Shown here in pieces: positions 34,163-50,512 of a stretch of 64,000 nt of DNA. This DNA comes from an uncultured bacterium. Lineage in GTDB: Bacteria > AUK180. Each line of letters begins with the position of its first letter. Positions within the stretch are counted from its first letter, which is position 1. Both the position numbers and the translations under genes were made by a program. The DNA is taken from positions 3,431 to 67,430 of the forward strand of contig CALMGJ010000010.1 in assembly GCA_937863565.1 (NCBI GenBank). The letters are read 5' to 3'. The notes below the pieces were generated by a model. The model was not told the origin of the DNA. It saw nothing but the letters and a program-made list of their open reading frames with translations, and did no database searches.

Positions 34163-37100
34163 TCAGAAAATTCCATTTTCCCGAAGTATTCCTATTTCCT
34201 TGGCAGGGATATGAGCCCCGGAAATCGCAGACGGCCGGATGTCTGCTCTCTGATCGATCACTTTCTCGAATGATGAAGGCTCGGAGACAGGGACCCTACG
34301 CATATCGAAATTGAACACATGTCCCTGTTTCAGTTCAAGAGGAATATCCCGGATATTGTTCCCGTCATTCTCGCCGATGTCCGGAGAGATCCTGAGCAAT
34401 TTTGCATTCTTTTTCAACTTGCTTGTTCCGGCATTGAAATCTATGATGATGTCCGCTTTGGAGATCATTTCCTTAAAAGGCTTCCTTTTAATATAACCGT
34501 CAAAAACAAGATCCCTGCCGTTCTCATTCGCGAAGCTCTTCAGAATAATACAGTTCTTTCCTTTCATCTCCGCCGCCGTTCTTTTATCAATATCCTTTTC
34601 ACAGGTAATGATAAGATCATCAGGTCCGCATGCGGGCAGTTTGTCGGCTTTCCCGAACATGCCCAGGTTTTTTTGTTCCTTGAGCCCTGTGAAGAACACC
34701 TGAGCCCCGCTCCTCTTGGCCGCGGTAAGATGATATCTCATTACGCCGTGCAGAGTGCCGAGATCTTCCTTATAAACGAATATCCTTTTAAAAGACGGTA
34801 TTTTCTCGGCTGTAATGTTCGAGTATCCGGAGATCTCGTCTTTATCCGCGAATGCAATGAAAGCGCTGTTCTCTTCGGCAATGGAGAGCATCTGTTCATA
34901 TTCCTCGAGTGTGAAATTAGGCCCCGGTACGATCAGTTTCACGCCTTCTTCCTTCCAGAAAAATTCGGCGGCTTTCTTGAACACATTAGGGGATTTAATG
35001 CCTTTTTCCATACCCTTCAGATGGTCCGTGCCGAACTTCCCGAGAGCGCAGAGCACTCCCTTAGAATGCAGGGAGTTCTGAAAACCGCGGACAGAATTGA
35101 ATTTACCCTCGGCGAACAGGAGCTCTATCTCGCAGGCCATATCGCAGTTCGCGCAAATACTCTTTTGTGCAATTTTCTCAAAGGGTCCCGGCTGAGCGAG
35201 ATCGGGGATGGAAATGATCGCGCCGACAGGGCAGTATTCTTCGCATTGTCCGCAGGAAACACATTCAGGAGAATCTTTGAATGCCGTTTCAAGGCGCGGC
35301 CCGAGCTGCGTGATAAAACCTCTCTCTATGAATCCGAGAGCATTGACGCCGACTATCTCATCGCACACTCGTACGCATTTCCCGCACAGGATGCATTTAT
35401 TGAAATTGAGTTTGATACGGGGATGGCTTTTATCTTCCGGAAGTTCGGTATGCTCTCCTGCGAATCTCTTTTTATCCACATCATAGAGCGCGGAATACTC
35501 TTTCAACCTGCACTCGAAAACATCCTGGCATCCGCACTGCATGCAGCGCTTCGCTTCCAGAACGGCATCTTTCTCAGAAAGCGTGAATTCGAAATCCTCG
35601 AAATTGCTCTTGCGTGTTGCCGCAGGCAGCAATTTTATTGCGGGAGGCGATTTCTTTTCCACATCCTTGAAATCATCTTCTCCGATCTTTTTAAAATCCT
35701 TTTTCTCGATAAAGAATTCCCTGTCCGCTTTGAGTTCTCTTCCTTTTAAAAGGTCATCGATCTTCTCTGCTGCCGATCTGCCCTGAGCTATCGATTCTAC
35801 GACAGTGGAAGGTCCAAGAACGCAGTCACCTCCTGCGAAGATACCGGTTATGTTCGTTGCCATGACGCCTTCGGCGACCAAGATCCTTCCCTTCCGGTCA
35901 ATGTTCACCCCACAAGAAGCGAAACAGCCGCCGTCGATCTTCTGCCCAATCGCAGTGACAACGGTATCGAAATCGACATCATGCTCGGAACCCTCCTTGG
36001 GCACCGGCGACCTTCTTCCGGATGCATCCGGTTCCCCGAGCTCCATATTGATGATCTTAAGTCCCTTGAGCTGCCCTTCAGAGCTCCGGAGTATCTCGAC
36101 GGGATGACTGAGAAAATCGAAAACGATGCCTTCTTCCTTCGCCTCTTCGATCTCTATTTTATTGGCGGGCATTTCCTCCTCGGTCCTTCTGTAAACGAGG
36201 TGCACTTCTGCGGTGCCGAGTCGGATCAGGGTCCTGGCCACGTCCATAGCCGTATTGCCGCCTCCCACCACGGCGCACTTCTTCCCGATCACAGGTATCT
36301 TTCCCGAAGCTACTGAGCGGAGGAATTCGATGCCCTTGTAATATCCGGTCGCATCCTCACCGGGAATACCCATCAGCATATCGTTCTGAGCGCCTATTCC
36401 TATGAAGAACGCCGAAAAACCTTCACTTTTCAATTTGCCGATATCCGTATCCTTGCCGAAATCGACTCCTGTTATGATCCTTATCCCCATCGATTCAAGT
36501 ATGCCGATCTCCTTTGCAAGAAGATCCTTGGGAAGGCGGTAGGCCGGAATGCCGTATCTAAGCATGCCTCCCGGCTCAGGGAGCTTCTCGAAAACGGTTA
36601 CCTGATAACCTTTCATCCTTAGATAATATGCTGCGGATAATCCCGCCGGTCCGGACCCTATCACCGCGACCTTCTCCTTTCTTTCCTCGGCGATCTCGGG
36701 CGTGTAAATATCCCCGGAATTGATATCGAGTTCCGCGACGAATCTTTTCAGAGGATTTATCAGTATGTTCTTCTCCGTGAAATTGCGGTAGCATTTCTCC
36801 GTGCAGAATTGAGGACAAACGCGGCCCAAGGACACGGGCAGAGCGACTTTCTCCTTGATGAGCTTCAGCGCGTCGCGGAAATTCCCATTGGCTATATGCG
36901 CCATATAACCCTGTATATCTATATGCGCGGGACATGCTCTGTTGCAGGGGGCGAAGCAATCCGCGAAATGGTTCGAGAGCATCAGTTCCAAGGCCATCTT
37001 TCTTGATTCCAGTATTTCGGGGGAGTTCTCCGTTATCTCCATCCCTTCGGCCACTACAGTTGAGCAAGCCGGCATGAATGCCTTGGCGTTCTTGACCGAA

Positions 37101-37255
37101 ACGAGGCAGATCCTGCATGAAGCGAAATGTTCGAGATGTTCGTTCTCGCAAAGAGTGGGGATGAATATCCCGTTCTCCCCGGCAACCTCGAGTATCGTTC
37201 TTCCCTTCTTGACCGTCAGGTCCCTACCATTGAATTTGATGTTGACAGTATCCAT
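34163..37255 (-). CDS. StnC/NfnA-like large subunit: NuoG-type FeS + GltD-type FAD/NADPH domain + eroded molybdopterin-enzyme scaffold
   Basis: IPTLC..SCRICLV..PAC; APCNRACP, GRVCPQFC; IGSGPAG, GGMLRYGIP, VGGGNTAMD, YRRT (NADPH); CILCGKC, CVSCGQC; CANCDMAC...LC. Confidence 0.8.
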   Translation of the reverse strand: MDTVNIKFNGRDLTVKKGRTILEVAGENGIFIPTLCENEHLEHFASCRICLVSVKNAKAFMPACSTVVAEGMEITENSPEILESRKMALELMLSNHFADCFAPCNRACPAHIDIQGYMAHIANGNFRDALKLIKEKVALPVSLGRVCPQFCTEKCYRNFTEKNILINPLKRFVAELDINSGDIYTPEIAEERKEKVAVIGSGPAGLSAAYYLRMKGYQVTVFEKLPEPGGMLRYGIPAYRLPKDLLAKEIGILESMGIRIITGVDFGKDTDIGKLKSEGFSAFFIGIGAQNDMLMGIPGEDATGYYKGIEFLRSVASGKIPVIGKKCAVVGGGNTAMDVARTLIRLGTAEVHLVYRRTEEEMPANKIEIEEAKEEGIVFDFLSHPVEILRSSEGQLKGLKIINMELGEPDASGRRSPVPKEGSEHDVDFDTVVTAIGQKIDGGCFASCGVNIDRKGRILVAEGVMATNITGIFAGGDCVLGPSTVVESIAQGRSAAEKIDDLLKGRELKADREFFIEKKDFKKIGEDDFKDVEKKSPPAIKLLPAATRKSNFEDFEFTLSEKDAVLEAKRCMQCGCQDVFECRLKEYSALYDVDKKRFAGEHTELPEDKSHPRIKLNFNKCILCGKCVRVCDEIVGVNALGFIERGFITQLGPRLETAFKDSPECVSCGQCEEYCPVGAIISIPDLAQPGPFEKIAQKSICANCDMACEIELLFAEGKFNSVRGFQNSLHSKGVLCALGKFGTDHLKGMEKGIKSPNVFKKAAEFFWKEEGVKLIVPGPNFTLEEYEQMLSIAEENSAFIAFADKDEISGYSNITAEKIPSFKRIFVYKEDLGTLHGVMRYHLTAAKRSGAQVFFTGLKEQKNLGMFGKADKLPACGPDDLIITCEKDIDKRTAAEMKGKNCIILKSFANENGRDLVFDGYIKRKPFKEMISKADIIIDFNAGTSKLKKNAKLLRISPDIGENDGNNIRDIPLELKQGHVFNFDMRRVPVSEPSSFEKVIDQRADIRPSAISGAHIPAKEIGILRENGIF

Positions 37256-37257
37256 TT

Positions 37258-39015
37258 CTAATCCTTGATGACCGCGTCAAAGCGGCAGACATCGTAACAT
37301 TTCCCGCATTTGATGCACTTTGCCTGTTCTATTAAATGCGGTTTCTTCACTTCCCCTTCGACCGCTTTCACAGGACAATTGCGCGCACAGAGCGTGCAAC
37401 CCGTACATTTTCCGGCATCGATCGTGAAAGAAAGGAGGGATTTGCATACATGCGAAGGGCATTTCTTCTCTTTAATATGGGCAATGTACTCGTCCCTGAA
37501 ATACTTTATGCTTGTGAGAACGGGGTTCGGAGCTGTTTGCCCAAGGCCGCACAAAGAACCGTTCCTTACCTGACCGGCAAGCTTCTCCAGTTCCTCTATG
37601 TCGCTTTCTTTCCCTTTGCCTTCAGTGATCCTCGTCAGTATCTCGAGCATCCTCTTATTGCCTAACCTGCAGAATGTGCATTTCCCGCAGGATTCCTCTA
37701 CGACGAAGTTGAGAAAAAAACGGGCCACATCGACCATGCACGTATTTTCATCCATTACGACCATGCCCCCCGAACCCATGATGGCCCCCGTCCGGTTCAA
37801 GGAATCATAATCCACCGGGACATCGAGAAGCGATGCAGGGATACATCCTCCCGAAGGGCCTCCGATCTGGACAGCTTTGAATTTTTTATCGTTCCTGATC
37901 CCTCCTCCGATGTCGAATATCACTTCCCTGAGGGTGATCCCCATAGGTACTTCCACCGTTCCCGTGTTCTTGATCTTTCCGGTCAAGGCGAACACTTTAG
38001 TGCCTTTGCTTTTCTCCGTTCCGATCGCCGCGTATTTTTCCCAGCCGTTCAGTACGATCCACGGCACATTTGCAAATGTCTCAACATTATTTATATTAGT
38101 GGGTTTTCTCCAAAGTCCGCTCTGTGCAGGAAAGGGCGGCTTAAGCGTGGGCATGCCCCGGTTCCCTTCGATCGACCGCATAAGAGCTGTCTCTTCACCG
38201 CAGACGAAAGCGCCCGCCCCCTTTTTCAATTCAATATTAAAATCGAAACCCTTCCCGAAGATGTTCTTCCCGAGATAGCCTGCATTCCTTGCCTGTGAAA
38301 CCGCTATCTCGAGTCTTTTGATCGCAAGCGGATATTCGGCCCTCACATAAATGAACCCCGTATCCGAGCCGATCGCGAAACCGGCGATGGCCATCCCCTC
38401 GAGAACGGAATGTGGATCTCCCTCAAGAACGCTTCTGTCCATGAAGGCGCCGGGATCACCCTCATCGGCATTACAGATGAGGTATTTCTTGTCCGAATCC
38501 GAAGCTCTTGCGAACTTCCATTTGAGGCCTGTGGGAAAACCCGCGCCGCCCCTTCCACGAAGGCCCGATCTGATCATGTCCTCTATCAGATTCTCGGGTG
38601 TTCCCGCAAGGGTTTTTTTCAGCGCTTCCCATCCCCCTGCTGCGATATACTCGTCAAGCGATTCCGGATTGATGCGCCCGAGATTCCGCATGACGATCTT
38701 AACTTGTTTACTATTGTAAAGGCTCTGTTCGAATTCCGGGGCACCCTTTATGAAAACGGCCCATTCCTTCCGGACCTCTTCATTCTCGATGATCGCGATC
38801 AACTCAGCCGTTCTCTTCTCATTGATATCCCCGTAAATAACGGATGAACCGTCATCTCCGAGAACTTCAACAATGGGTTCACGATAACACATCCCGATAC
38901 ATCCGGTCTTTTCGACTTTCCCGCCGAATTTGTCCGAAAGCGCTTTGAAGACCGGTGCTGCTCCGGCTGCGATCCCGCAAGACGCCATCCCCACCTTTAT
39001 CTTTGTTACGTTCAT
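37258..39015 (-). CDS. HydB/StnB-type (bifurcating) NuoF-like subunit
   Basis: N-terminal thioredoxin-like segment; ADEGDPGAFMDR, GAGAFVCGEET, GGPSGG, ESCGKCTFCR; C-terminal 2x[4Fe-4S] (CTGCTLC, CIKCGKC). Confidence 0.9.
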   Translation of the reverse strand: MNVTKIKVGMASCGIAAGAAPVFKALSDKFGGKVEKTGCIGMCYREPIVEVLGDDGSSVIYGDINEKRTAELIAIIENEEVRKEWAVFIKGAPEFEQSLYNSKQVKIVMRNLGRINPESLDEYIAAGGWEALKKTLAGTPENLIEDMIRSGLRGRGGAGFPTGLKWKFARASDSDKKYLICNADEGDPGAFMDRSVLEGDPHSVLEGMAIAGFAIGSDTGFIYVRAEYPLAIKRLEIAVSQARNAGYLGKNIFGKGFDFNIELKKGAGAFVCGEETALMRSIEGNRGMPTLKPPFPAQSGLWRKPTNINNVETFANVPWIVLNGWEKYAAIGTEKSKGTKVFALTGKIKNTGTVEVPMGITLREVIFDIGGGIRNDKKFKAVQIGGPSGGCIPASLLDVPVDYDSLNRTGAIMGSGGMVVMDENTCMVDVARFFLNFVVEESCGKCTFCRLGNKRMLEILTRITEGKGKESDIEELEKLAGQVRNGSLCGLGQTAPNPVLTSIKYFRDEYIAHIKEKKCPSHVCKSLLSFTIDAGKCTGCTLCARNCPVKAVEGEVKKPHLIEQAKCIKCGKCYDVCRFDAVIKD

Positions 39016-39503
39016 TTGGATTCCCTCTTTTTAAAATTCTCGATAACGGTTTTGATCTTCTGAGGTGTAAGATTACCGAAAACCTCATCATTTATCATTA
39101 CCACAGGCGCGAGGGAACAGCATCCGAGGCAGGCCACTTTTTCCAGAGTGAAAAGTCCGTCCCCTGTAGTTGCTCCGATCTCCACGTTCAGGGCTTCCCG
39201 GATCGCATCTAGGATATTTTCGCCGCCGTTCACAAAACAGGCCGTACCCATGCATGTCCGTATGATGTATTTTCCCACCGGTTCGGTCCGGAACTGGGCA
39301 TAGAAAGTGATCACGCCGGTGATCTTCGTGTAGGGGATATGGAATTTTTCCGAAATGAGCTCTACGGCTTCCCTCGGAATATAGTTGAATTTCTCCTGTA
39401 TATCCTGCAGAAGGGGTATCAGAATCCCTGTTTTCCCTGAATACGCGTCCAGAATCGAATTAATGGCCTTTATGTCAGCAGCCGGGGTCTTTACATCCGT
39501 CAT
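39012..39503 (-). CDS. NuoE/HydC/StnA-like [2Fe-2S] subunit
   Basis: TFYAQF, CMGTAC, CLGCCSLAP; SD GGAGG. Confidence 0.9.
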   Translation of the reverse strand: MTDVKTPAADIKAINSILDAYSGKTGILIPLLQDIQEKFNYIPREAVELISEKFHIPYTKITGVITFYAQFRTEPVGKYIIRTCMGTACFVNGGENILDAIREALNVEIGATTGDGLFTLEKVACLGCCSLAPVVMINDEVFGNLTPQKIKTVIENFKKRESK

Positions 39504-39802: not shown

Positions 39803-39819
39803 CGGGGGAAATTACCCCG
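39803..39819. promoter_or_regulatory. Putative activator binding site (GGGG-N7-CCCC)
   Basis: CGGGGGAAATTACCCCG; its reverse complement matches 44462-44478 at 13/17 positions. Confidence 0.45.
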
Positions 39820-39846: not shown

Positions 39847-39874
39847 TTGACTTTAAATGAAAAAATTGTATAAT
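39847..39874 (+). promoter_or_regulatory. sigma70 promoter of gdhA
   Basis: TTGACT-N16-TATAAT. Confidence 0.7.
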
Positions 39875-39886
39875 CATTTCCAATGA

Positions 39887-41272
<1,386 letters not shown>

Positions 41273-41399: not shown

Positions 41400-43103
41400 A
41401 TGAATATAACTGACGGACCCGATCATCCGCTCGAAAAAAGGCTCGGTTACGATCTCTTTCCGATACATAAAGGGAAGATATTCAAGGAAATAAGCGCAAA
41501 ACTCTTTGAAACGGACATTAATAAACCTAAAGTCCGATTCATCTATGAGATAATGAACATCCTTCAGTATTATTCAGGCTGTGAAAGAGTATGTTTGTGC
41601 ATGAAAGACAATGATCATTTCCAGCATGCCGATATCAGAAGGGAAAAGGACAACAGATCGGTATTCTCATTCAATAAAAAGGGATTGTCTCCCGATTCAA
41701 ACTCCGATATCATCACCGGAATGATATTCGGGAGATCGGTGTTCAGCAGCTCATATCAGGAAAATAGCAGGACATTTTATTATCTGGACAATAACAGAGA
41801 TATCGAAGTGAATGTTACCGAGAAAGGCAGGTCCGCAATAAAGAAGATAACTCCTGAAAGGACCTACCGTTCAGCGCTTTTCATCCCCGTATGCGCAGGA
41901 GATGATGTGCTTGGCGTTTTTAGTTTAAAAAGCAGGAAGAGCTTCTTTTTTACAGAGATCGAGATCGAGTTCTATGAAGGTCTGGTCCTGATCATAGGGA
42001 TCATGCTGTTCGGTTTCAACACGAACTATAACCTCAATGAAAGGATCAAGGAACTCACAACTCTTTATGAGATGTCGCGTATCTTTGAAAGGAATACATC
42101 ACCGGAAGAATATTTGGGCGAAATATTAAAAATAGTCCCCCTCTCGATGCAGTTCCCCGATATCTGTTTTTGCAGGATCGTTCTGGACGGGAAAGAATAC
42201 TCCAATCTCAATAAAAGGAACATATCAAAATCCATCAGGGAAAAGATACGCATTAAGGGGGCGGAACGAGGCGAGATCGAAGTGCTCTATTCGGAGGGTG
42301 AGCAGCTCACGGAAACGGACCCATTCCTCTCGGATGAAAAAGAACTGTTGAAAGCCGTATCCAGGAATATAGGGATGTTCATTGAAACCGTTGAGAGCAA
42401 TATGGAACAGGAAAAGCTCCAGGAGCAGCTGCGGCATGCGGACAGGCTTGCCACTCTGGGCATCCTGACATCCGGCGTAGCACATGAATTAAACGAGCCG
42501 CTCGGCAACATACTCGGATTTTCTCAGCTTCTTCTTGCAGAAGGCCGGATGAATGACCGCGACCGCGGGGATATCGAGAAGATCGTGGAGTCTACCCTGT
42601 TCGCGAGGGAGATCATAAAGAAACTCATGTTCTTTTCAAGGCAGACCCCGCCTAAGAAGGCCCGGATCGACCTAAATGAGATCGTAAAAGAAGGGCTTTA
42701 TTTTCTTTCTTCAAGATGCCGTAAGGCCGGCATCAAACTTAAAAGAATGCTGCAGAAAGACCTTCCTCTGATCACCGCCGATCCCTCTCAACTTCACCAA
42801 GTGCTCGTCAATCTCGTAGTGAATTCGATACAAGCGATGCCGGAAGGAGGAACCCTTCTGATAAGGACCAAACAGGAAGAGGGATTTGTTGCGCTGACCG
42901 TTAAGGACAGCGGGATCGGCATGTCCGAAGAAGTGATGAAGAAGATCTTCATACCGTTTTTTACAACGAAAGATGTGAACCAGGGAACAGGTCTGGGACT
43001 TTCCGTTGTTCATGGCATCATCACTGCGCATAAAGGAATGATAAAAGTATCCAGCATTCCCGGCAAAGGCTCTTCTTTCTCGGTAAGGCTGCCGGTAAAA
43101 TAG
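41400..43103 (+). CDS. Cytoplasmic GAF-domain sensor histidine kinase (NtrB-like)
   Basis: GAF-like N-terminus with no TM; GVAHELNEPL (H box), QVLVNLVVNS (N), DSGIG (G1), FIPFFTTK (F), GTGLGL (G2). Confidence 0.9.
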   Translation: MNITDGPDHPLEKRLGYDLFPIHKGKIFKEISAKLFETDINKPKVRFIYEIMNILQYYSGCERVCLCMKDNDHFQHADIRREKDNRSVFSFNKKGLSPDSNSDIITGMIFGRSVFSSSYQENSRTFYYLDNNRDIEVNVTEKGRSAIKKITPERTYRSALFIPVCAGDDVLGVFSLKSRKSFFFTEIEIEFYEGLVLIIGIMLFGFNTNYNLNERIKELTTLYEMSRIFERNTSPEEYLGEILKIVPLSMQFPDICFCRIVLDGKEYSNLNKRNISKSIREKIRIKGAERGEIEVLYSEGEQLTETDPFLSDEKELLKAVSRNIGMFIETVESNMEQEKLQEQLRHADRLATLGILTSGVAHELNEPLGNILGFSQLLLAEGRMNDRDRGDIEKIVESTLFAREIIKKLMFFSRQTPPKKARIDLNEIVKEGLYFLSSRCRKAGIKLKRMLQKDLPLITADPSQLHQVLVNLVVNSIQAMPEGGTLLIRTKQEEGFVALTVKDSGIGMSEEVMKKIFIPFFTTKDVNQGTGLGLSVVHGIITAHKGMIKVSSIPGKGSSFSVRLPVK

Positions 43104-43112
43104 AGGACGCAT

Positions 43113-44453
43113 ATGAAACCAAAGGTCAAAGAAGCAATTCTTGTCGTCGACGACTCCCGGAACACGGTAGAGATCCTTACGCGGAATTTGAACAAGCAGG
43201 GATACAGGACATTTTCTGCCTTAAATGTGGATGACGCGATAAAGATTCTTGGCGAAATGGAGCTGGATCTTGTTATTACCGACCTGAAAATGCCCGGGAA
43301 AAGCGGACTTGAACTCGTGAAACATGTCCGGGATAATTATCCGAACATTGAAGTGATCATGATCACCGGTTACCCCTCGATACAGGACGCGGTTAAAGCG
43401 GTTAAAACGGGAGCGGACAGTTATCTTCCCAAACCGTTCACGGAAGAGGAACTTCTGAAGGCTATCGGTATCGCTGTGGAAAAACTAAGGAAGAAAAAAA
43501 AGTTGAACGATGCGGTCACTGAGCGATATTACGGTATGATCGGCGAATCGAAACCGATGCAAAAGGTCTACAGGATGATCTCGAAAGCTTCTGCCACAAG
43601 GGCCAATGTACTTATCCTAGGAGAGAGCGGCACAGGGAAGGAGTTGGTGGCCCGAGCCATTCATTATGCCAGCTCCGCTAAGTCCGCGCCTTTCGTTCCG
43701 GTCAACTGCGGCGGAATTCCCGGAGAGCTTCTTGAAAGCGAACTGTTCGGTTATGTGAAAGGTGCTTTTACCGGGGCCAATGAATCGCGTGCAGGTTTTT
43801 TCCAAACAGCGGACGGAGGAACGATCTTTCTTGACGAGATCAGTGAAACGACGCTTGCCATGCAAGTGAAACTTCTTCGCGTACTCCAGGATAAAATGGT
43901 TTATCTGCTAGGGTCCCGAAAACCTCAAAGGGTAGATGTCCGGATCATTTCCGCTTCCAACAGGGATATTTCTTCCCTTGTCAAGCAGGGCATATTCAGG
44001 GAAGACCTGTATTTCAGGCTGAACGTAATTTCTTTGGAACTGCCTCCTCTCAGGGAAAGGGAAGGGGATATCATCCTTTTGCTTAAATACTTATTGAATA
44101 AATTCTCGAAAGAGATGAACAGTAAAGAAAAAACTCTGTCCGATGAAGCTCTGCAGATATTTCTCAATTACTACTGGCCGGGAAATATCAGAGAGCTCGA
44201 GAACATGATTCACCGACTTGTGATAATGACCGAAAGCGCCGTTATAAATGTTACCGACCTTCCCGCATTCATGAGATATTCCACTGCACAGAAGACTTTC
44301 GACAAGACCCTGGAGCAGGTCGAGCATGAGCATATCGTAAATGTTCTCACTTCCGTTCATCATAATAAGACGAAAGCCGCACAGGTTCTCGGCATCGACA
44401 GGAAAACGCTTCGTGAAAAATTAAAGAAACACCGTCTCGAAAACGGGGAATAA
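43113..44453 (+). CDS. sigma54-dependent response regulator (NtrC/AtoC family)
   Basis: Receiver VVDD/TDLKMP; GESGTGKE, ESELFG, GAFTGA, FLDEI, FREDLYFRL, WPGNIREL; Fis-type HTH. Confidence 0.95.
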   Translation: MKPKVKEAILVVDDSRNTVEILTRNLNKQGYRTFSALNVDDAIKILGEMELDLVITDLKMPGKSGLELVKHVRDNYPNIEVIMITGYPSIQDAVKAVKTGADSYLPKPFTEEELLKAIGIAVEKLRKKKKLNDAVTERYYGMIGESKPMQKVYRMISKASATRANVLILGESGTGKELVARAIHYASSAKSAPFVPVNCGGIPGELLESELFGYVKGAFTGANESRAGFFQTADGGTIFLDEISETTLAMQVKLLRVLQDKMVYLLGSRKPQRVDVRIISASNRDISSLVKQGIFREDLYFRLNVISLELPPLREREGDIILLLKYLLNKFSKEMNSKEKTLSDEALQIFLNYYWPGNIRELENMIHRLVIMTESAVINVTDLPAFMRYSTAQKTFDKTLEQVEHEHIVNVLTSVHHNKTKAAQVLGIDRKTLREKLKKHRLENGE

Positions 44454-44461
44454 TTACTTAC

Positions 44462-44478
44462 CGGGGTGTTTCTCCCCG
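44462..44478. promoter_or_regulatory. Putative upstream activating sequence for the sigma54 promoter
   Basis: CGGGGTGTTTCTCCCCG palindrome ~100 bp upstream of the -24 element; IHF-like AATAAAACAGTTA at 44537-44549 lies between them. Confidence 0.5.
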
Positions 44479-44576
44479 CCGCAGACTGCCTCTTTATAAA
44501 ATGATAAAAACTTTTCCCCTGCTATAAAAAACCAACAATAAAACAGTTATATTAAAAATGATCTCTTCGTACTTTC

Positions 44577-44592
44577 TGGCATGTTCCTTGAT
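44577..44592 (+). promoter_or_regulatory. sigma54 (-24/-12) promoter
   Basis: TGGCAT-GTTCC-TTGAT versus consensus TGGCAC-N5-TTGCW (GA at -12); immediately downstream of a sigma54 activator gene. Confidence 0.65.
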
Positions 44593-44625
44593 TTAATAAT
44601 ATTATGCAAAAACCGGAGGTTGATC

Positions 44626-44913
44626 ATGTTGGAAAAAGTCAAAGTTGCAAGGAGGGTGTCTGCGGATACCTCCTCTGTATGTATGAACTGCGTTCATGCC
44701 GGCGATTGTGTTCTCAGGGAACACGCGACAGGGCCGATCCTTCAATGCGAGGAATACTATCTAAAGCCCGAAACGAACGCGGCTTCAAGCTCTACGGCCG
44801 CCGAAGCCGAGATCATCGAATACAAAGGTCTGTGCAGCGATTGCAAACACAGGTCGGAATGCCATCTTTCCGGAACGGAAAGCGGTGTCTGGCATTGCGA
44901 ACATTACAGTTGA
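44626..44913 (+). CDS. Small Cys-rich protein with two CX2CXHX3CX11-12CExY repeats (metal-binding, unnamed)
   Basis: SD GGAGG then ATG 44626; 95 aa; CMNCVHAGDC...CEEY and CSDCKHRSEC...CEHY joined by an Ala/Ser/Glu linker. Confidence 0.75.
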   Translation: MLEKVKVARRVSADTSSVCMNCVHAGDCVLREHATGPILQCEEYYLKPETNAASSSTAAEAEIIEYKGLCSDCKHRSECHLSGTESGVWHCEHYS

Positions 44914-44929
44914 TGTCATAGGAGGATAA

Positions 44930-46210
44930 ATGAACGTTCAAACTGCGAAAAAATTGAAAGGAAGTGTTTATGAAAATGTTCTGAGGCAATTCGATCGCGC
45001 TGCCGATCTGATCAAACTCGATGACGGAGTACGGAAGATCCTGCGCACGACGAAGAACGAGATAATAGTCCATTTCCCCGTAAGGATGGATGACGGGCGT
45101 GTGGAAGTGTTCACCGGATACCGTGTTCAGCACAACGATATTCTCGGACCTTTTAAGGGCGGTCTCAGATTTCATCCCGCCGTAGATATCGACGAAGTAA
45201 GGTCCCTGGCGACCTGGATGACGTGGAAATCGGCCATCGTTAATATTCCCTTCGGCGGTGCCAAAGGCGGGATCCAGATGGATCCTTCCAAATATTCCAT
45301 AAAAGAGATCGAACGGATAACGAGGCGGTTCACGTTTGCTTTAGGATTCAATATCGGTCCGGAATACGATATCCCCGCTCCCGATGTAAATACCAATCCT
45401 CAAATAATGGCATGGATCCTTGACACCTACCTGTCCACCGTTGCTCCCGGTGACCGGCAGAGAAGCACTCATGTTGTAACGGGGAAACCGCTCGAATCCG
45501 GCGGCAGCATAGGAAGGGACAAGGCCACGGGTCAGGGAGTGGTGTTCTGCATCGAGGAATGGGCAAAAGAAAAAAACTTCGACCTTTCAAAGGCTACATA
45601 CATCGTTCAAGGTTTCGGCAATGTCGGTTCCTGGACTGCAAAGCTCCTTAAAAGATTGGGAGCTAAGCTCCTTGCCGTGGAAGATGTGACGGGGATAATC
45701 CATGACCCTAAAGGGATCGATCCCGAAGTCCTTGCCGAATTCGTTGCCGAGAAGAAGGGCATCCGGGGTTTTCCCGGAGCGAAAGAAATCGATCACGATA
45801 CGTTCCTGCAAACGGAGGCGGATATTTTCATCCCGGCCGCCCTTGAGAACCAGATCACGGCAGAGACCGCTCCGAAGCTTAAAGTAAAGCTCGTCGCAGA
45901 AGGCGCTAATGGCCCCACTGATACCGATGGGGATGCTGTTCTTCAGGAGAAGAAGATCGATGTAATTCCCGATGTGCTCTGCAATTCGGGAGGCGTTATA
46001 GTCAGTTACTTCGAATGGCTTCAGAATAAAAGAAGCGAATTCTGGGAGCTTGAAGAGGTGGATTATAAACTCAGGAAGAAGATCACCACAGCATATCAAA
46101 AGGTCGCCGATGTGCGGAACACTCTTAAAACGGATCCGCGAACAGCAGCCCTTATGGTAGGATTGCTGAACCTCGATAAATCGTATAAACTCAGGGGAAT
46201 ATACCCCTGA
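44930..46210 (+). CDS. Glu/Leu/Phe/Val dehydrogenase (glutamate dehydrogenase, GudB/Thermotoga-like class)
   Basis: GPFKGGLRFH, MTWK, GGAKGG, DIPAPDVNT, QGFGNVG, EGANGP, SYFEW; SD AGGAGG. Confidence 0.92.
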   Translation: MNVQTAKKLKGSVYENVLRQFDRAADLIKLDDGVRKILRTTKNEIIVHFPVRMDDGRVEVFTGYRVQHNDILGPFKGGLRFHPAVDIDEVRSLATWMTWKSAIVNIPFGGAKGGIQMDPSKYSIKEIERITRRFTFALGFNIGPEYDIPAPDVNTNPQIMAWILDTYLSTVAPGDRQRSTHVVTGKPLESGGSIGRDKATGQGVVFCIEEWAKEKNFDLSKATYIVQGFGNVGSWTAKLLKRLGAKLLAVEDVTGIIHDPKGIDPEVLAEFVAEKKGIRGFPGAKEIDHDTFLQTEADIFIPAALENQITAETAPKLKVKLVAEGANGPTDTDGDAVLQEKKIDVIPDVLCNSGGVIVSYFEWLQNKRSEFWELEEVDYKLRKKITTAYQKVADVRNTLKTDPRTAALMVGLLNLDKSYKLRGIYP

Positions 46211-46237: not shown

Positions 46238-46264
46238 GGAAGGGGGAGCTCGGTTCCCCCTTCC
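46238..46264. terminator. Hairpin between convergent GDH genes (probable terminator)
   Basis: GGAAGGGGGAGC-TCG-GTTCCCCCTTCC; T-rich run follows on the minus strand. Confidence 0.65.
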
Positions 46265-46325: not shown

Positions 46326-47579
46326 TTACGCATATACTCCGCGTACTTTTATCACATCGATCACTCTTTTGATCGCCAGAATATAAGCAGCGACTCTCAG
46401 ATTGACCTTGTATTCCAGACCTACATTCCAGACGCTGTCGAAACTTTCAACCATGATGCGTTCTAGTTTTTCGTTCACTTCGTTCTCGGGCCAGTAATAG
46501 GATTGTTTGTTTTGCACCCATTCAAAATAAGAGACAGTAACACCGCCGGCATTTGCCAGGATATCCGGCACGATCATCACGCCGTTCTTCGAGAGTATTT
46601 CATCGGCATCCGGTGTTGTCGGACCGTTGGCGCCTTCTACGATGATCTTGGCTTTGATCTTGCCGGCATTGTCGGCCGTTATCTGATTTTCCAGCGCCGC
46701 GGGAACGAGAACATCGCAATCGAGAGTCAGAAGGTCTTCAGCCGGTATCTTCTTTCCCCCTTCGAATCCCTTGAGCGTTTTATTTTTAATGATGCATTCA
46801 TTAGCCTTGGCCATATCAATACCGTCAGGATTGTGGTAAGCGCCCGAAATATCCGATATACCTACGATCTTTGCACCCTGTTCGGCCATCAGAGTTGCAC
46901 CGATCCCTCCGACATTGCCGAATCCCTGGACAACGATCCTTACGCCTTTGAGGTCTTTGCCCGTTTTCTTCAGAGCTTCCCGGACACAGAACATCACACC
47001 CCGACCTGTCGCTTCCTTCCTTCCGAGTGAACCGCCGAGTTCAATGGGTTTTCCGGTTACTACGGCCGTTTCGGTATGTCTTTTATGCATGGAGAAAGTG
47101 TCCATGACCCATGCCATTACCTGCGGATTCGTGTTGACATCGGGCGCGGGGACATCACTATCCGGCCCGAATATTTCAACGAGATCTGCAGTATAGCGGC
47201 GGGTCAATCTTTCAATCTCGCCGGGGGAAAGTTTGGTGGGATCACAATTGATGCCGCCTTTTGCCCCGCCGAAGGGGATATTGACAACCGCGCATTTCCA
47301 GGTCATCCAGAATGCCAGGGCCTTGACCTCGTCAAGAGTGACGTTCTGATGGTACCGGATACCGCCTTTCCCCGGTCCGCGCACTATGCTGTGGAGCACG
47401 CGGTAACCTTCGAAAACTTTGAAACTGCCGTTATCCATTTTGATCGGCAAACTGACGATCACGGCCCTTCTCGGTCTTTTAATGATCTCAAGAAAGCCCG
47501 GATCAAGATTCATCTTCGATGCGGCTTTTTCAAACTGCCGCATTGCATTCTCAAAAGGATTGTCACTATGTTCGTTCAT
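46326..47579 (-). CDS. Glu/Leu/Phe/Val dehydrogenase (third glutamate dehydrogenase)
   Basis: GPGKGGIRYH, MTWKCA, GGAKGG, DVPAPDVNT, QGFGNVG, EGANGP, SYFEW; SD GGAGG. Confidence 0.92.
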   Translation of the reverse strand: MNEHSDNPFENAMRQFEKAASKMNLDPGFLEIIKRPRRAVIVSLPIKMDNGSFKVFEGYRVLHSIVRGPGKGGIRYHQNVTLDEVKALAFWMTWKCAVVNIPFGGAKGGINCDPTKLSPGEIERLTRRYTADLVEIFGPDSDVPAPDVNTNPQVMAWVMDTFSMHKRHTETAVVTGKPIELGGSLGRKEATGRGVMFCVREALKKTGKDLKGVRIVVQGFGNVGGIGATLMAEQGAKIVGISDISGAYHNPDGIDMAKANECIIKNKTLKGFEGGKKIPAEDLLTLDCDVLVPAALENQITADNAGKIKAKIIVEGANGPTTPDADEILSKNGVMIVPDILANAGGVTVSYFEWVQNKQSYYWPENEVNEKLERIMVESFDSVWNVGLEYKVNLRVAAYILAIKRVIDVIKVRGVYA

Positions 47580-47744: not shown

Positions 47745-49238
47745 TTATTTTTTCTTGCCTTTTTTCAAAGTGTTCTTCGCGGCAGGCTTCTTAGCCGTTT
47801 TGCCCGGCGCCTTTTTTACAGGCACTTTGGCCGGTTTTCTTGTCGGCACCTGTTTCTTTACAGGTTTCTTAGCCGCTTTGACAGGAGTCTTTTTTACAGG
47901 CACTTTTACCGATTTTTTAGTCGCCGTCTGTTTCTTAACAGGCTTCTTGCCAACCTCTCCCGCTGCTTTTTCCGGAGCCTTAGAAGCTCTATCTGTTTTT
48001 TTCGTTTTTACCGGAACGGGTTTCACTTCTTTGATTTGAGGAGTCGTCCTTTTAACCAGGGAGATCGCCTCAACGGGACAGACGCCTACGCAGAATCCGC
48101 AACCGACACATTTTTCTTCATCTATCACTATCTTCCCGTCCTTGAGGGTGATCGCTCGATGGCCTCCGTCATGACAGGCGATATAACATTTATTGCAGAG
48201 TATGCACTTTGTTTCGTCCACCGAAGATACCGGCGCCTGACCGATCTTATACGGGATTCTGTCATGGTCTACTATATAAGGCAGAGCTTTGCCTATGACC
48301 GCTTTCACATTAGGGAGTTTTTTTGATTCAAGGTATTCGGCCAGGCCGTCCGTCAGGGAATCGATGATCCGGAATCCGTTATGCATGGCCTCTGTGCCGA
48401 TCTGAACTCCGCTTGCCCCTGCAAGCATGAATTCGATGGCATCGCGGTAGTCCGATACTCCGCCGACACCGAAAACGGGGATCTTCACGTTCTTTGCTAT
48501 GCTTGAGATATTCTTTAAAGTGATCGGTTTTACGGAAGGGCCTGTTATACCGGCATAACACCCGTATCCGTTCACGGTAGGAACAGGCCTCTGAGAAGCG
48601 ATATCGATGCCCAAAAGACCTATTACGGAGTTGGTAATGACAACCGCATCGCCGCCGCCGTCCTTTACCGCCTGTGCGATCTCGAGTATATCGGTTACAT
48701 GCGGCGTGAGTTTGATGAGAACGGGAATGTCCTTAGCGCCTTCTTTGACCCATGCTGTTACTTTCTTCGTAGCTTCTTTGGATTGAGCGAGGGTCTTTCC
48801 GGGGTCTTCACCCATATTGCCCTGGGGGCAGGAGAAAGAGCATTCGATCATATCTGCCCCTGCTTTCATAAGGTCTCTTGCCAGGGTTGTCCAGTCCTTC
48901 CTGTTCTCCGCCATAATGCTGGGGATGATGACCTTATTTGGGAATTTATCCTTGATCTTGCTTACGGTTTTCTCTACGGTAGAGAACGGAACTTCCGATA
49001 TGAGGTCGATATTCCCGAGCGTGACCATCCTTCTGTTGCCGAACGCGATCGCCTGCATCATCGGATATTTCAAGGCCACTATCTTACCGTCCACGGCGGT
49101 CGTTTTCAATGCGGCTCCCGCCCATCCCAGCCTCAAAGCATCAACGACCATTTCAATCTCGTCCGTACATGGAGTAGCCGCTAGTACGAAGGGATTCTCG
49201 AATTTTACGCCTAATATTTCAAGGGATAGATTTTCCAT
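47745..49238 (-). CDS. preA: Dihydropyrimidine dehydrogenase PreA-like subunit with a Lys-rich C-terminal tail
   Basis: ENPFVLA, NIDLIS, FSCPQ, KLTPHVTDI, ITNS; 2x[4Fe-4S] (CILCNKCYIACHDGGH, CVGCGFCVGVCP); ~100-aa K/P/A/V tail. Confidence 0.8.
   Translation of the reverse strand: MENLSLEILGVKFENPFVLAATPCTDEIEMVVDALRLGWAGAALKTTAVDGKIVALKYPMMQAIAFGNRRMVTLGNIDLISEVPFSTVEKTVSKIKDKFPNKVIIPSIMAENRKDWTTLARDLMKAGADMIECSFSCPQGNMGEDPGKTLAQSKEATKKVTAWVKEGAKDIPVLIKLTPHVTDILEIAQAVKDGGGDAVVITNSVIGLLGIDIASQRPVPTVNGYGCYAGITGPSVKPITLKNISSIAKNVKIPVFGVGGVSDYRDAIEFMLAGASGVQIGTEAMHNGFRIIDSLTDGLAEYLESKKLPNVKAVIGKALPYIVDHDRIPYKIGQAPVSSVDETKCILCNKCYIACHDGGHRAITLKDGKIVIDEEKCVGCGFCVGVCPVEAISLVKRTTPQIKEVKPVPVKTKKTDRASKAPEKAAGEVGKKPVKKQTATKKSVKVPVKKTPVKAAKKPVKKQVPTRKPAKVPVKKAPGKTAKKPAAKNTLKKGKKK
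47780..47950 (-). repeat. Tandem 78-bp (26-aa) repeat in the PreA basic tail
   Basis: KKPVKKQTATKKSVKVPVKKTPVKAA / KKPVKKQVPTRKPAKVPVKKAPGKTA / KKP. Boundaries approximate. Confidence 0.75.
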
Positions 49239-49249
49239 AAAGGTCTCCT

Positions 49250-50512
49250 TTAGAACTCTTCCGAGATGATCTGGGCGATCTCTTTTGCGATCTTAACGCA
49301 CTCGACCACGGACCCGCCTCCGGTCACCATGTCACCGGCCAGAAAAACATTGTCCAGAGAGGTCTGATAGTCGTCCCCGATCTGCACTATACTTCTATTT
49401 TTATCCATTGCGATGTTCGTTTTCTTGAAGATGGCCAGATTCTGTTCATAACCGATAGCGAAAACGACGGCATTGCATTTAACCTTGAATTGTGTTCCGC
49501 TCATCGGCTGGGCGACGAGTTTGCCGGTTTTTCCGGGAACGACCGTATTCTCGATGAAGTCAATGAAAAGCTCGCCGTCATTATTGCGGTTGACTTTTAA
49601 AGGAGACGAAAGGTAGTTGAACGAAATGCCTTTTTTATGAGCGAAATCCATCTCGCTCGGCGAAGCCGGCATTTCATGGATGCTCCTTCTGTAATATATG
49701 CTGACCTTCTTGGCAACATCAAGGGCGGCTACTGCACAATCCATGGCGACATCGCCGCCTCCTATTATCACCACATGGTTTCCCAGAGGCTTCATCGCCT
49801 TCTTGCGGGTATGCTTCAAAAAGTCGTCGGCGGTGAAAACGTTCTGATGTCTGCTGCCTTCTATTCCTCCCTGTTTGGACATGAGGCCGCCTGCGATTAT
49901 TACGGCATAGTATTCCCTGAGGAGTTTCTTCAGTTCCAGGTCCTTTCCGAAAACGGAATTGTACGAGATAGTGATGCCGTGGGAAAGGATCCTCGAAAAG
50001 TCCAGTTCTTTGGCTTCATTGCTGAGCCTCCAGAGCGGAAGAGTGGAGTTTAAAACGCCGCCGATGTGTTTCTCTTTCTCGAAGATCTTTACCTTGACGC
50101 CTTTCTGGGCAAGGAATTCTGCAGCTGCCAAACCCGCAGGCCCCGCCCCGATCACCGCAACTTTCTTCTTCGTATTATTTCCCGACTTCAGTTTTGCCAG
50201 GTCCTTTGCGTATGCGCAGGCATATCTTTGGATCATCGGAATATTCACGGGCTTCCCGATCTTGCTCTGGACGCATTTTCCCATGCAGAGCGTTTCAGCA
50301 GGGCAGATCTCGCCGCAGATAGCGCCGAGCGGATTGTCTCGATATATGATCCTGGCCGCCCTTGTATTATTCTTTTCCCGGACGGCTTTAATGAATTCCG
50401 GAATATCTATACCCGCAGGACATCCTTTAATGCAGGGGGCATCATAGCAATAAAGGCATCGGTTGGCTTCTAATGAAACATTAACGAACTCTTTTTCAGC
50501 TAAACTCAGCAT
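49250..50512 (-). CDS. preT: Dihydropyrimidine dehydrogenase PreT-like (GltD-family) subunit
   Basis: EANRCLYCYDAPCIKGCP, CGEICPAETLC, IGAGPAG, IGGGDVAMDC, YRRS, AGD; directly upstream of preA. Confidence 0.8.
   Translation of the reverse strand: MLSLAEKEFVNVSLEANRCLYCYDAPCIKGCPAGIDIPEFIKAVREKNNTRAARIIYRDNPLGAICGEICPAETLCMGKCVQSKIGKPVNIPMIQRYACAYAKDLAKLKSGNNTKKKVAVIGAGPAGLAAAEFLAQKGVKVKIFEKEKHIGGVLNSTLPLWRLSNEAKELDFSRILSHGITISYNSVFGKDLELKKLLREYYAVIIAGGLMSKQGGIEGSRHQNVFTADDFLKHTRKKAMKPLGNHVVIIGGGDVAMDCAVAALDVAKKVSIYYRRSIHEMPASPSEMDFAHKKGISFNYLSSPLKVNRNNDGELFIDFIENTVVPGKTGKLVAQPMSGTQFKVKCNAVVFAIGYEQNLAIFKKTNIAMDKNRSIVQIGDDYQTSLDNVFLAGDMVTGGGSVVECVKIAKEIAQIISEEF

Follow-up and report, generated by a model that had tools for sequence, protein, structure and literature searches.

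The 64-kb stretch of DNA analysed here (contig CALMGJ010000010.1 of an uncultured bacterium; hereafter the window) contains a 95-codon open reading frame (ORF) for a small, cysteine-rich protein, henceforth called the mini-protein, which lies between the genes of a two-component system (sensor histidine kinase and sigma54 activator) and a glutamate dehydrogenase (GDH) gene. We are highly confident that this mini-gene is real and belongs to a large, unnamed family, that it stands first in a sigma54-dependent unit under the adjacent two-component pair via a conserved enhancer, and that the enzyme genes behind it (the cargo) alternate between one GDH clade and Nfn-Bfu. As far as sequence comparison can tell, the predicted module of kinase, activator, enhancer, promoter, and mini-gene is conserved across many phyla, and its putative cargo, a separate and highly conserved clade of GDHs or else the NADPH:NAD/ferredoxin transhydrogenase Nfn-Bfu, consists of NAD(P)H enzymes of amino-acid catabolism. 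The mini-protein itself probably binds metal and represents a new type of helper in the redox metabolism of amino acids.

Two copies of the motif C-x2-C-x-H-x3-C-x11/12-C-E-x-Y make up the mini-protein (C19, C22, C28, and C41 in repeat 1; C70, C73, C79, and C91 in repeat 2). A first-pass annotation, made from the letters of the window without database searches, had described this twin motif, and its cysteines held up: both copies are present, and all eight cysteines are invariant in 139/139 aligned homologues (consensus GLCxTCxHxxxC-x8-PVxxCEEF for repeat 1 and GLCxNCExRxTC-x3-KPExGVWHCEEY for repeat 2). The histidine did not, being the majority residue in repeat 1 only and not conserved at its position in repeat 2, i.e., it is no conserved ligand. 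Relatives surfaced first via searches of related genomes, where three homologues were found among nine genomes of the same small phylum (G006, G007, and G008), and then via a four-sequence profile, which was searched against 1.84 billion cluster representatives and matched 1704 of them at an E-value of up to 1e-3 and 846 at up to 1e-10. A word-indexed homologue search with the single mini-protein returned only itself. The family members consist of two, sometimes three, Cys4 modules of about 30 residues each, joined by a long, variable, low-complexity linker; the mini-protein is acidic, and many family members have Lys/Arg-rich N-termini. The ratio dN/dS was 0.04–0.38 in 11 of the 12 close pairs for which it was computable, and by this measure the mini-gene is under purifying selection. 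Because of the 1704 profile matches, the eight invariant cysteines, and the purifying selection, the 95-aa ORF is taken to be a true gene. Its family is large and unnamed, and the genome of the window holds exactly one member of it. The best-scoring relatives are three-repeat forms (164 aa; 205–228 aa; P0004, P0016, P0026, and 15 top listed rows). At one locus (L067), two mini-genes stand in tandem, and one genome holds two complete modules (L022 and L060).

In the first-pass annotation, no family with this motif had been recognised, and this was borne out by Pfam, NCBIfam, PDB, and fold searches alike. Neither Pfam nor NCBIfam provided a family for the mini-protein, and across 60 scanned members no consistent family of either database was found, with stray weak matches to the WhiB, SPASM, NirJ2, and NADH_4Fe-4S models and, in a few members, to a freyrasin-type model. 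Among 120 listed relatives of close length, each row either lacks a name or reads “hypothetical protein,” and no precomputed Pfam domain is given for any of them. A sequence search of the PDB with a 60-member profile gave no chain at an E-value of up to 10, WhiB structures included, and a search with the single member P0027 gave spurious RecA rows only. Matches in the ESM Atlas fell into unnamed clusters, with none among the named clusters. No published description of the family was found in the literature searched, supplements left aside.

Conservation of the neighbourhood was determined from a scan of species-representative genomes, which yielded at least 587 confirmed loci; the best 80 of these (L019–L098) were kept and searched with the window proteins using tblastn, and the counts given below refer to them. 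Their titles name Planctomycetota, Myxococcota, Marinimicrobia, Zixibacteria, WOR-3, Sumerlaeota, Spirochaetota, Bacteroidota, Ignavibacteria, Fibrobacterota, Chloroflexota, Lentisphaerota, Bdellovibrionota, and Mcinerneyibacteriota. Of the 72 loci with at least 1600 nt of upstream sequence, 65 have an orthologue of the activator (52–62% identity) ahead of the mini-gene in the same orientation (within 800 nt in 61), and of the 64 loci with at least 3300 nt, 56 have the kinase there, at 36–49% identity. Among the 73 loci with at least 900 nt downstream, the next gene encodes a NuoE-like protein in 34, followed by NuoF-like and GltD-like/NuoG-like genes, a GDH in 30, and neither of the two in nine. 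The two loci closest to the window have the same layout as the window. As a check, the first-pass annotation had suggested looking for homologues between sigma54 two-component genes and gdh, and this arrangement was recovered (activator upstream in 65/72, GDH directly downstream in 30/73). The proposed partnership with GDH stood in part: GDH is a frequent but not a universal neighbour, as its place is taken by Nfn-Bfu in 34/73 loci and by neither enzyme in 9/73. The latter comprise L035 and L081, where all genes that follow are on the opposite strand, a pair of Bacteroidota loci with MORN and TerC genes, L040 with an indolepyruvate-type oxidoreductase and a CoA ligase, L030 with a divergent ELFV-like protein, L043 with an unknown protein, and L023 and L028, where a GDH gene follows further on. 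In two of the seven loci without an upstream activator, the kinase/activator pair is placed after the GDH gene.

In four loci from Marinimicrobia and Myxococcota (L023, L028, L031, L097), a protein of 981–982 aa with a PPDK_N domain (phosphoenolpyruvate-utilising, ATP-binding) is encoded on the opposite strand and adjoins the mini-gene; in L023 and L028, it has a receiver-like N-terminus, too.

Upstream of the mini-gene, the element TGGCAT-N5-TTGAT is the sole zero-mismatch match to the sigma54 pattern TGGCAY-N5-TTGMW in the 64 kb; with up to one mismatch, the window holds eight matches (6.5 expected). In the corresponding position, two related loci have TGGCAT-N5-TTGCT (L002, with the canonical TTGC) and TGGCAC-N5-TTGAA (L003). 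Promoter-like sites with a score of 9/11 or more against the consensus within 350 nt 5′ of the mini-gene were found in 49 of 77 loci (three of the 80 had too little upstream DNA) compared to 30 of 400 control windows. The −24/−12 promoter called at 44577 by the first-pass annotation is present as an element and has counterparts elsewhere; of the dinucleotides that define such promoters, GG at −24 and GC at −12 with a spacing of 10 nt, it has the GG, but its −12 element reads GA. The candidate enhancer GGGGTGTTTCTCCCC lies about 130 nt 5′ of the predicted transcription start. As the pattern GGGG-N7-CCCC occurs twice in the window with 1.02 occurrences expected, this palindrome alone is not beyond chance, and its significance derives from its conservation in other genomes. 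Sites of the type GGG-N9-CCC (consensus GGGGAATTTCTCCCC) occur in 39 of 65 activator-to-mini-gene spacers, at 2.13 per kb versus 0.33 per kb over the loci, often 20–70 nt 3′ of the activator stop codon and sometimes as tandems 18 bp apart. They also lie 5′ of the mini-gene in six of the seven loci without an upstream activator. Hence, the call of a palindromic upstream activating sequence (UAS) in the window was upheld, while that of an integration host factor (IHF) site at 44537 was rejected: the stretch is a one-mismatch match to WATCAANNNNTTR, and such matches are rarer than chance in the window (28 versus 65 expected), so the site carries no weight. An alternative reading of the mini-ORF with 110 aa from an ATG at 44581 was likewise discarded, because it overlaps the promoter and the homologues align from the methionine at 44626. 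As annotated before, the mini-gene has its own Shine–Dalgarno sequence, and its end is separated by 16 nt from the ATG of the GDH gene.

A second enhancer-like palindrome, GGGGGAAATTACCCC (39804–39818), separates the NuoE-like gene from gdh1 as part of their spacer; the window has no further GGGG-N7-CCCC besides this one and that ahead of the mini-gene. No sigma54-like promoter was found beside it by the scan criteria used, nor was one found for the Nfn-Bfu operon of the window. A scan of the window's own genome for pairs of enhancer and promoter was too noisy for defining a regulon.

Both regulators ahead of the mini-gene, a putatively soluble kinase and a GAFTGA activator, are encoded where the first-pass annotation had placed them, as judged by Pfam domains and translation. 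The kinase has an N-terminal GAF domain followed by HisKA and HATPase_c, and a second sensor domain (approximately residues 205–340) is without a Pfam family; the NCBIfam matches of the kinase are to AtoS/ZraS-type models only, all below cut-off. In an alignment of 27 orthologues, this second sensor domain (window positions 42010–42420) shows a strong motif, ER-KEL-CLY ... PFL-EE, whose conserved cysteine is a threonine in the kinase of the window. The activator belongs to the NtrC family (Pfam E-values of 1.2e-28 for REC, 1.5e-68 for Sigma54_activat, and 9e-14 for the helix-turn-helix domain; GAFTGA present in the translation), with no NCBIfam equivalog at cut-off and no equivalog name that fits the kinase/activator pair. 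The genome of the window carries rpoN. Within the phylum, activator orthologues above 54% identity were found only in those four of nine genomes that have the mini-gene, and activator orthologue, GDH2-type enzyme (67–72% identity), and mini-gene occur together in these four and are all missing in the other five, the nine genomes being a small and mutually related sample.

GDH produces NAD(P)H from glutamate, and Nfn-Bfu exchanges electrons among NADPH, NAD, and ferredoxin; from this pairing, we infer a functional link between the two cargo enzymes. The product of the gene directly behind the mini-gene in the window (gdh2, “GDH2 type”) is a Glu/Leu/Phe/Val dehydrogenase (Pfam ELFV_dehydrog_N, 6.3e-55; ELFV_dehydrog, 8.7e-70) and reaches 450 bits with NCBIfam GdhA_Arch, below the cut-off of 750 bits. 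Aligned identity among 23 GDHs encoded directly 3′ of mini-genes was 62–73%, these having been selected at 60% tblastn identity or above, and within the nine phylum genomes the GDH2 type was restricted to the four that hold the mini-gene. About 5 kb upstream of the mini-gene and on the opposite strand, the window contains a complete operon that by domain content encodes Nfn-Bfu (NfnABC/Stn), i.e., the enzyme type of the next gene in 34/73 loci, and with a GDH gene adjoining, both cargo types are thus found near the mini-gene in the window. This NfnABC/Bfu architecture is described for Thermococcus and Caldicellulosiruptor in the excerpts considered of PMC12018979 and PMC11829005.

Downstream of the mini-gene in most other phyla, the NuoE-like protein has about 280–300 aa (alignment of L020–L095), of which approximately 125 residues form a conserved, Cys-rich C-terminal extension without a Pfam family. 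NuoF is often fused to a GltD-like module (about 1050–1170 aa; L029 has a NuoF-GltD fusion). Tandem GDH pairs follow the mini-gene in L025, L038, L070, L074, L087, and L091.

Regarding the role of the mini-protein, the reading that we favour, tentatively and at somewhat less than even chance, is that of an accessory subunit, which would bind metal and dock on the NAD(P)H enzyme made along with it. According to this proposal, a stimulus to the kinase would lead to phosphorylated activator on the palindrome, which would open the sigma54 promoter, so that mini-protein and GDH would be made together. Each Cys4 module would hold a metal centre, most likely [4Fe-4S] because of the CX2CX5C spacing, which, followed by a distal cysteine, we take to be that of the [4Fe-4S] sites of WhiB, endonuclease III, and SPASM proteins; the sporadic weak matches of family members to WhiB, SPASM, and NADH_4Fe-4S models are in keeping with this. 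The mini-protein would then dock on GDH in the organism of the window and on the NuoE-like NfnC subunit elsewhere, where it may tune enzyme activity to redox or metal state or, alternatively, couple the NADPH-producing GDH to the NADPH-consuming Nfn-Bfu.

The accessory-subunit reading is favoured because of fusions to both enzymes and a weak, GDH-dependent signal in co-folding. A search among longer proteins of the family gave nine proteins. In five clusters (P0273–P0277; P0275 known from its table entry only), the module is N-terminal to a NuoE-like domain, with two repeats in the four that were fetched, and in P0278, a 29-member cluster, a NuoE-like protein ends in one C-type repeat. A GDH preceded by one C-type repeat is found in P0279 and P0280, which represent two independent natural fusions. 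In P0272, a domain resembling the second sensor domain of the kinase precedes two repeats (BLASTP E-value of 1e-4 to residues 212–330 of the kinase, motif shared). Co-folding of GDH2, NuoE-like protein, and mini-protein gave a score of 0.41 (median of three runs at 0.29, 0.44, and 0.41) and the verdict “weak support,” with a contact agreement of at least 69% and a partner pLDDT (predicted local distance difference test) of at least 53, compared to 0.00 for the best of three controls. The score also fell to 0.00 when GDH alone was replaced, so the modelled signal depends on GDH; this same control, which retained the mini-protein and the NuoE-like chain, gave no support for binding between these two and no evidence against it. 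The suggested co-fold of mini-protein and GDH thus came out weakly in favour. In the calibration, 58 of 80 solved complexes and two of 110 mismatched pairs passed the mark, while the range up to 0.60, in which our result falls, held only seven of those 80 complexes along with both passing mismatches; moreover, custom alignments and three chains were used here, unlike in the calibration set.

Several points weigh against this interpretation, in whole or in part. Without a good prior, a co-fold pass in the weak class is wrong in more cases than it is right, and neighbouring genes of an operon may become fused even if their separate products never bind each other. The reading also requires that a single small protein dock on two enzymes that are not related to each other, and its tree is not sorted by downstream enzyme (18–20 label changes among 81 proteins in a quick, poorly resolved tree). 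At least four loci (L035, L081, L053, L088) have neither a GDH-like nor an Nfn-type gene downstream. The putative metal binding is deduced from the motif. The two AlphaFold models are mediocre (overall pLDDT 70.9 and 68.6; 81–88 in repeat 1 and about 60–75 in repeat 2), contain short helices only, after the first and third cysteine of each module, and matched no solved fold (Foldseek against the PDB; VIA-wide). The GA in the −12 element of the window counts here as well.

As a rival explanation, the mini-protein could be a free low-potential electron carrier, i.e., an atypical di-cluster “mini-ferredoxin” fed by Nfn-Bfu or by 2-oxoacid:ferredoxin oxidoreductases after GDH and co-induced with the NADPH-generating GDH, whereby all parts of the redox chain for glutamate oxidation would be produced at once; we consider this rather unlikely. 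It would account for an acidic protein with eight invariant cysteines in two modules of presumably [4Fe-4S]-like spacing, for the 34/73 loci in which the mini-gene is directly ahead of the NuoE-like gene of Nfn-Bfu, for its place before indolepyruvate/2-oxoacid:ferredoxin oxidoreductase genes in L040, and for fusions to NuoE-like subunits at either end, and the three-repeat forms are reminiscent of polyferredoxins. 2×[4Fe-4S] bacterial ferredoxins and the ferredoxin partner of Nfn-Bfu are similarly small, acidic, and provided with eight cysteines, and they too are associated with ferredoxin-dependent oxidoreductases, like those encoded with the mini-gene; the fusion to an NfnC-like subunit adds to this likeness, as that subunit forms part of the ferredoxin site (PMC12018979, excerpts). 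Unlike them, the mini-protein lacks CX2CX2CX3CP, and no ferredoxin family was matched: neither the window protein nor any of 60 members hit Fer4 at an E-value of up to 0.1. Its modules are separated by a flexible linker that is long, variable, and of low complexity, and it is fused to GDH, too, an enzyme without a redox centre for electron exchange. In addition, the NuoF-like protein was used as a query against ten genomes that have mini-GDH loci and whose completeness is not established: four encode a GltD-containing Nfn-Bfu elsewhere, three have NuoEF without GltD, and three (about 1.8–1.9 Mb) have no NuoF-like gene at an E-value of up to 1e-30. The Nfn-Bfu operons elsewhere in two of the mini-GDH genomes have no mini-gene alongside.

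It is also unlikely, in our judgement, that the mini-protein acts as a feedback or co-sensor of the two-component system in the manner of PspA-PspF, ZraP-ZraSR, or CpxP-CpxA, in which case the first product of the regulon would bind the kinase sensor domain or the activator and report redox or Fe-S status. The tightest synteny is indeed that with the kinase/activator pair, the enhancer accompanies the mini-gene even where the pair is encoded elsewhere, the mini-gene stands alone behind the promoter in L035 and L081, within the phylum activator orthologue and mini-gene co-occur (4/4 versus 0/5), and P0272 joins a domain like the second sensor domain of the kinase to the two repeats. Yet whichever gene came first among the targets of a regulator would be expected to show such synteny just as well. 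The fusion with a sensor domain, moreover, is represented by the one sequence P0272, as P0020 has no BLASTP similarity to the kinase (E-value of 3.0), and enzyme fusions outnumber it.

Less probable still, and quite doubtful overall, is a combination of docking and signalling, in which a twin Fe-S module would dock on GDH or NfnC and, via its other repeat, on the second sensor domain of the kinase, so that the redox state or flux of glutamate oxidation would be sensed at the enzyme itself and passed on to transcription. The mini-protein would then be the third component of a new, “enzyme-coupled” type of sigma54 signalling device, and its natural fusions of three kinds, with GDH, with NuoE-like protein, and with a kinase-type sensor domain, would be fossil records of these contacts.

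The last two readings are unlikely. A WhiB-like or zinc-finger factor, which would bind RNA polymerase/sigma54 or nucleic acid via its often basic N-terminal tail, has very little probability. Size, CX2CX5C followed by G-V-W, and an arginine three residues past the second cysteine recall WhiB-like (Wbl) proteins, many members have Lys/Arg-rich N-termini, and Pfam WhiB (PF02467) was matched sporadically, by 6/60 members at an E-value of up to 0.1 and 3/124 at up to 0.005, the best one at 24.8 bits (cut-off 23.6) with no single stretch passing alone. The mini-protein of the window, by contrast, is below the gathering score of 23.6 bits, with no match at an E-value of up to 1, most members do not match the model either, and the PDB and fold searches retrieved no Wbl structure. 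Wbl proteins have the cysteine order C-Xn-C-X2-C-X5-C followed by G[VI]WGG. The mini-family differs in its order (C-X2-C-X5-C-X9-12-C, with G-V-W-H before the last cysteine in repeat 2 only), in having the fourth cysteine after the motif, in its duplicated module, and in its occurrence outside Actinobacteria. That the mini-ORF encodes the precursor of a ribosomal peptide similar to ranthipeptides or sactipeptides, or is a leader ORF without function, as suggested by the Cys-richness and the weak freyrasin-type and SPASM matches of a few members, is hardly credible given conservation over the whole length, purifying selection, fusions to enzymes, and no radical-SAM maturase seen in the window or the examined loci.

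Small accessory proteins beside their regulator, as its first or strongest target, are known from PspA-PspF, ZraP-ZraSR, and CpxP-CpxAR, where the Psp and Zra promoters are sigma54-dependent. The system described here is a variant of this known kind of circuit, in which a sigma54 two-component system has a small protein, encoded next to it, as its first target. The protein family is new, and the regulatory module that contains it is widespread but undescribed. It has no relation in sequence or fold to the Psp, Zra, and Cpx proteins and differs from them in that the mini-protein is putatively cytoplasmic, Cys-rich, and followed by metabolic enzymes. Control of a GDH by sigma54 is likewise not new, as exemplified by RocR-rocG of Bacillus subtilis. 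For Bacillota and Geobacter, sigma54-dependent GDH genes are mentioned in the excerpts considered of PMC12316311 and PMC2725144, which contain no mention of a Cys-rich mini-gene (supplements left aside). Beyond this shared sigma54 control of a glutamate dehydrogenase, the window differs in its two-component pair with a GAF kinase, its own conserved enhancer, and the Cys-rich mini-gene before the GDH gene. Protein regulators of GDH include Thermus GdhA/APRTh, GudB-GltAB, and GarA/OdhI; common to these and the mini-protein are the idea of a small GDH-modulating partner and, at several mini-loci, tandem GDH paralogues, whereas those systems have no Cys4 modules and no sequence relation to the mini-protein, which also accompanies Nfn-Bfu.

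If these readings are correct, a family of more than 1700 clusters at 50% identity is without a Pfam or NCBIfam name or a name among the listed rows, and a cross-phylum module (kinase, activator, 15-bp enhancer, sigma54 promoter, and mini-gene) governs GDH and electron-bifurcating Nfn-Bfu, mostly in uncultured anaerobes. This would offer a handle on how cells match their pools of NADPH, NADH, and ferredoxin to the catabolism of amino acids, and with the mini-protein, either the known Fe-S motifs or folds or the known types of accessory subunits of enzymes would gain a new one. Conserved enhancer and promoter together make a ready test system for the orphan two-component pair.

Table 1. Predicted features in the mini-gene region, with positions counted from the first nucleotide of the window.
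Feature	Position	Strand	Basis
NfnABC/Bfu-type operon	34163..39503	-	Pfam and NCBIfam domain content
Fer2 + GltD-like + NuoG-like subunit, 1030 aa	34163..37255	-	Pfam, NCBIfam
NuoF-like subunit, 585 aa	37258..39015	-	Pfam, NCBIfam
NuoE-like subunit, 163 aa	39012..39503	-	Pfam, NCBIfam
Sensor histidine kinase, 567 aa, putative cytoplasmic type	41400..43103	+	Pfam: GAF, HisKA, HATPase_c
NtrC-type sigma54 enhancer-binding response regulator, 446 aa	43113..44453	+	Pfam: REC, Sigma54_activat (GAFTGA), HTH_8
Candidate palindromic enhancer (UAS) GGGGTGTTTCTCCCC	44463..44477	.	GGGG-N7-CCCC, 3′ of activator stop
AT-rich stretch AATAAAACAGTTA, labelled IHF-like in the first-pass annotation	44537..44549	+	One-mismatch match only
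Sigma54 −24/−12 promoter-like element TGGCAT-N5-TTGAT	44577..44592	+	Pattern match TGGCAY-N5-TTGMW
Shine–Dalgarno sequence GGAGG of mini-gene	44615..44619	+	6 nt 5′ of ATG 44626
Twin-Cys4 mini-protein gene, 95 aa	44626..44913	+	ORF; Cys4 motif twice
GDH, 426 aa, “GDH2 type” (gdh2)	44930..46210	+	Pfam and NCBIfam; ATG 44930
GC-rich terminator-like hairpin after gdh2, between convergent gdh genes	46238..46264	.	Terminator scan

The hairpin behind gdh2 likely marks the end of the mini-gdh operon. Three GDH genes are located within 8 kb of the window: besides gdh2, these are gdh1 (39923–41272; NADP-specific by NCBIfam) and gdh3 (46326–47579), of which the latter is convergent with gdh2 and 48% identical to it. 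Upstream of gdh1, a near-consensus sigma70 promoter was recognised by eye (TTGACT, 16-nt spacer, TATAAT; 39847–39874), and therefore the NADP-type gdh1 may be expressed independently of the sigma54 module. Further downstream on the minus strand (47745–49238), a dihydroorotate/dihydropyrimidine-dehydrogenase-like Fe-S flavoprotein is encoded, which is adjoined by a GltD/PreT-like partner (49250–50512) and has a C-terminal tail of approximately 100 residues that is rich in Lys, Pro, Ala, and Val and contains histone-H1-like repeats.

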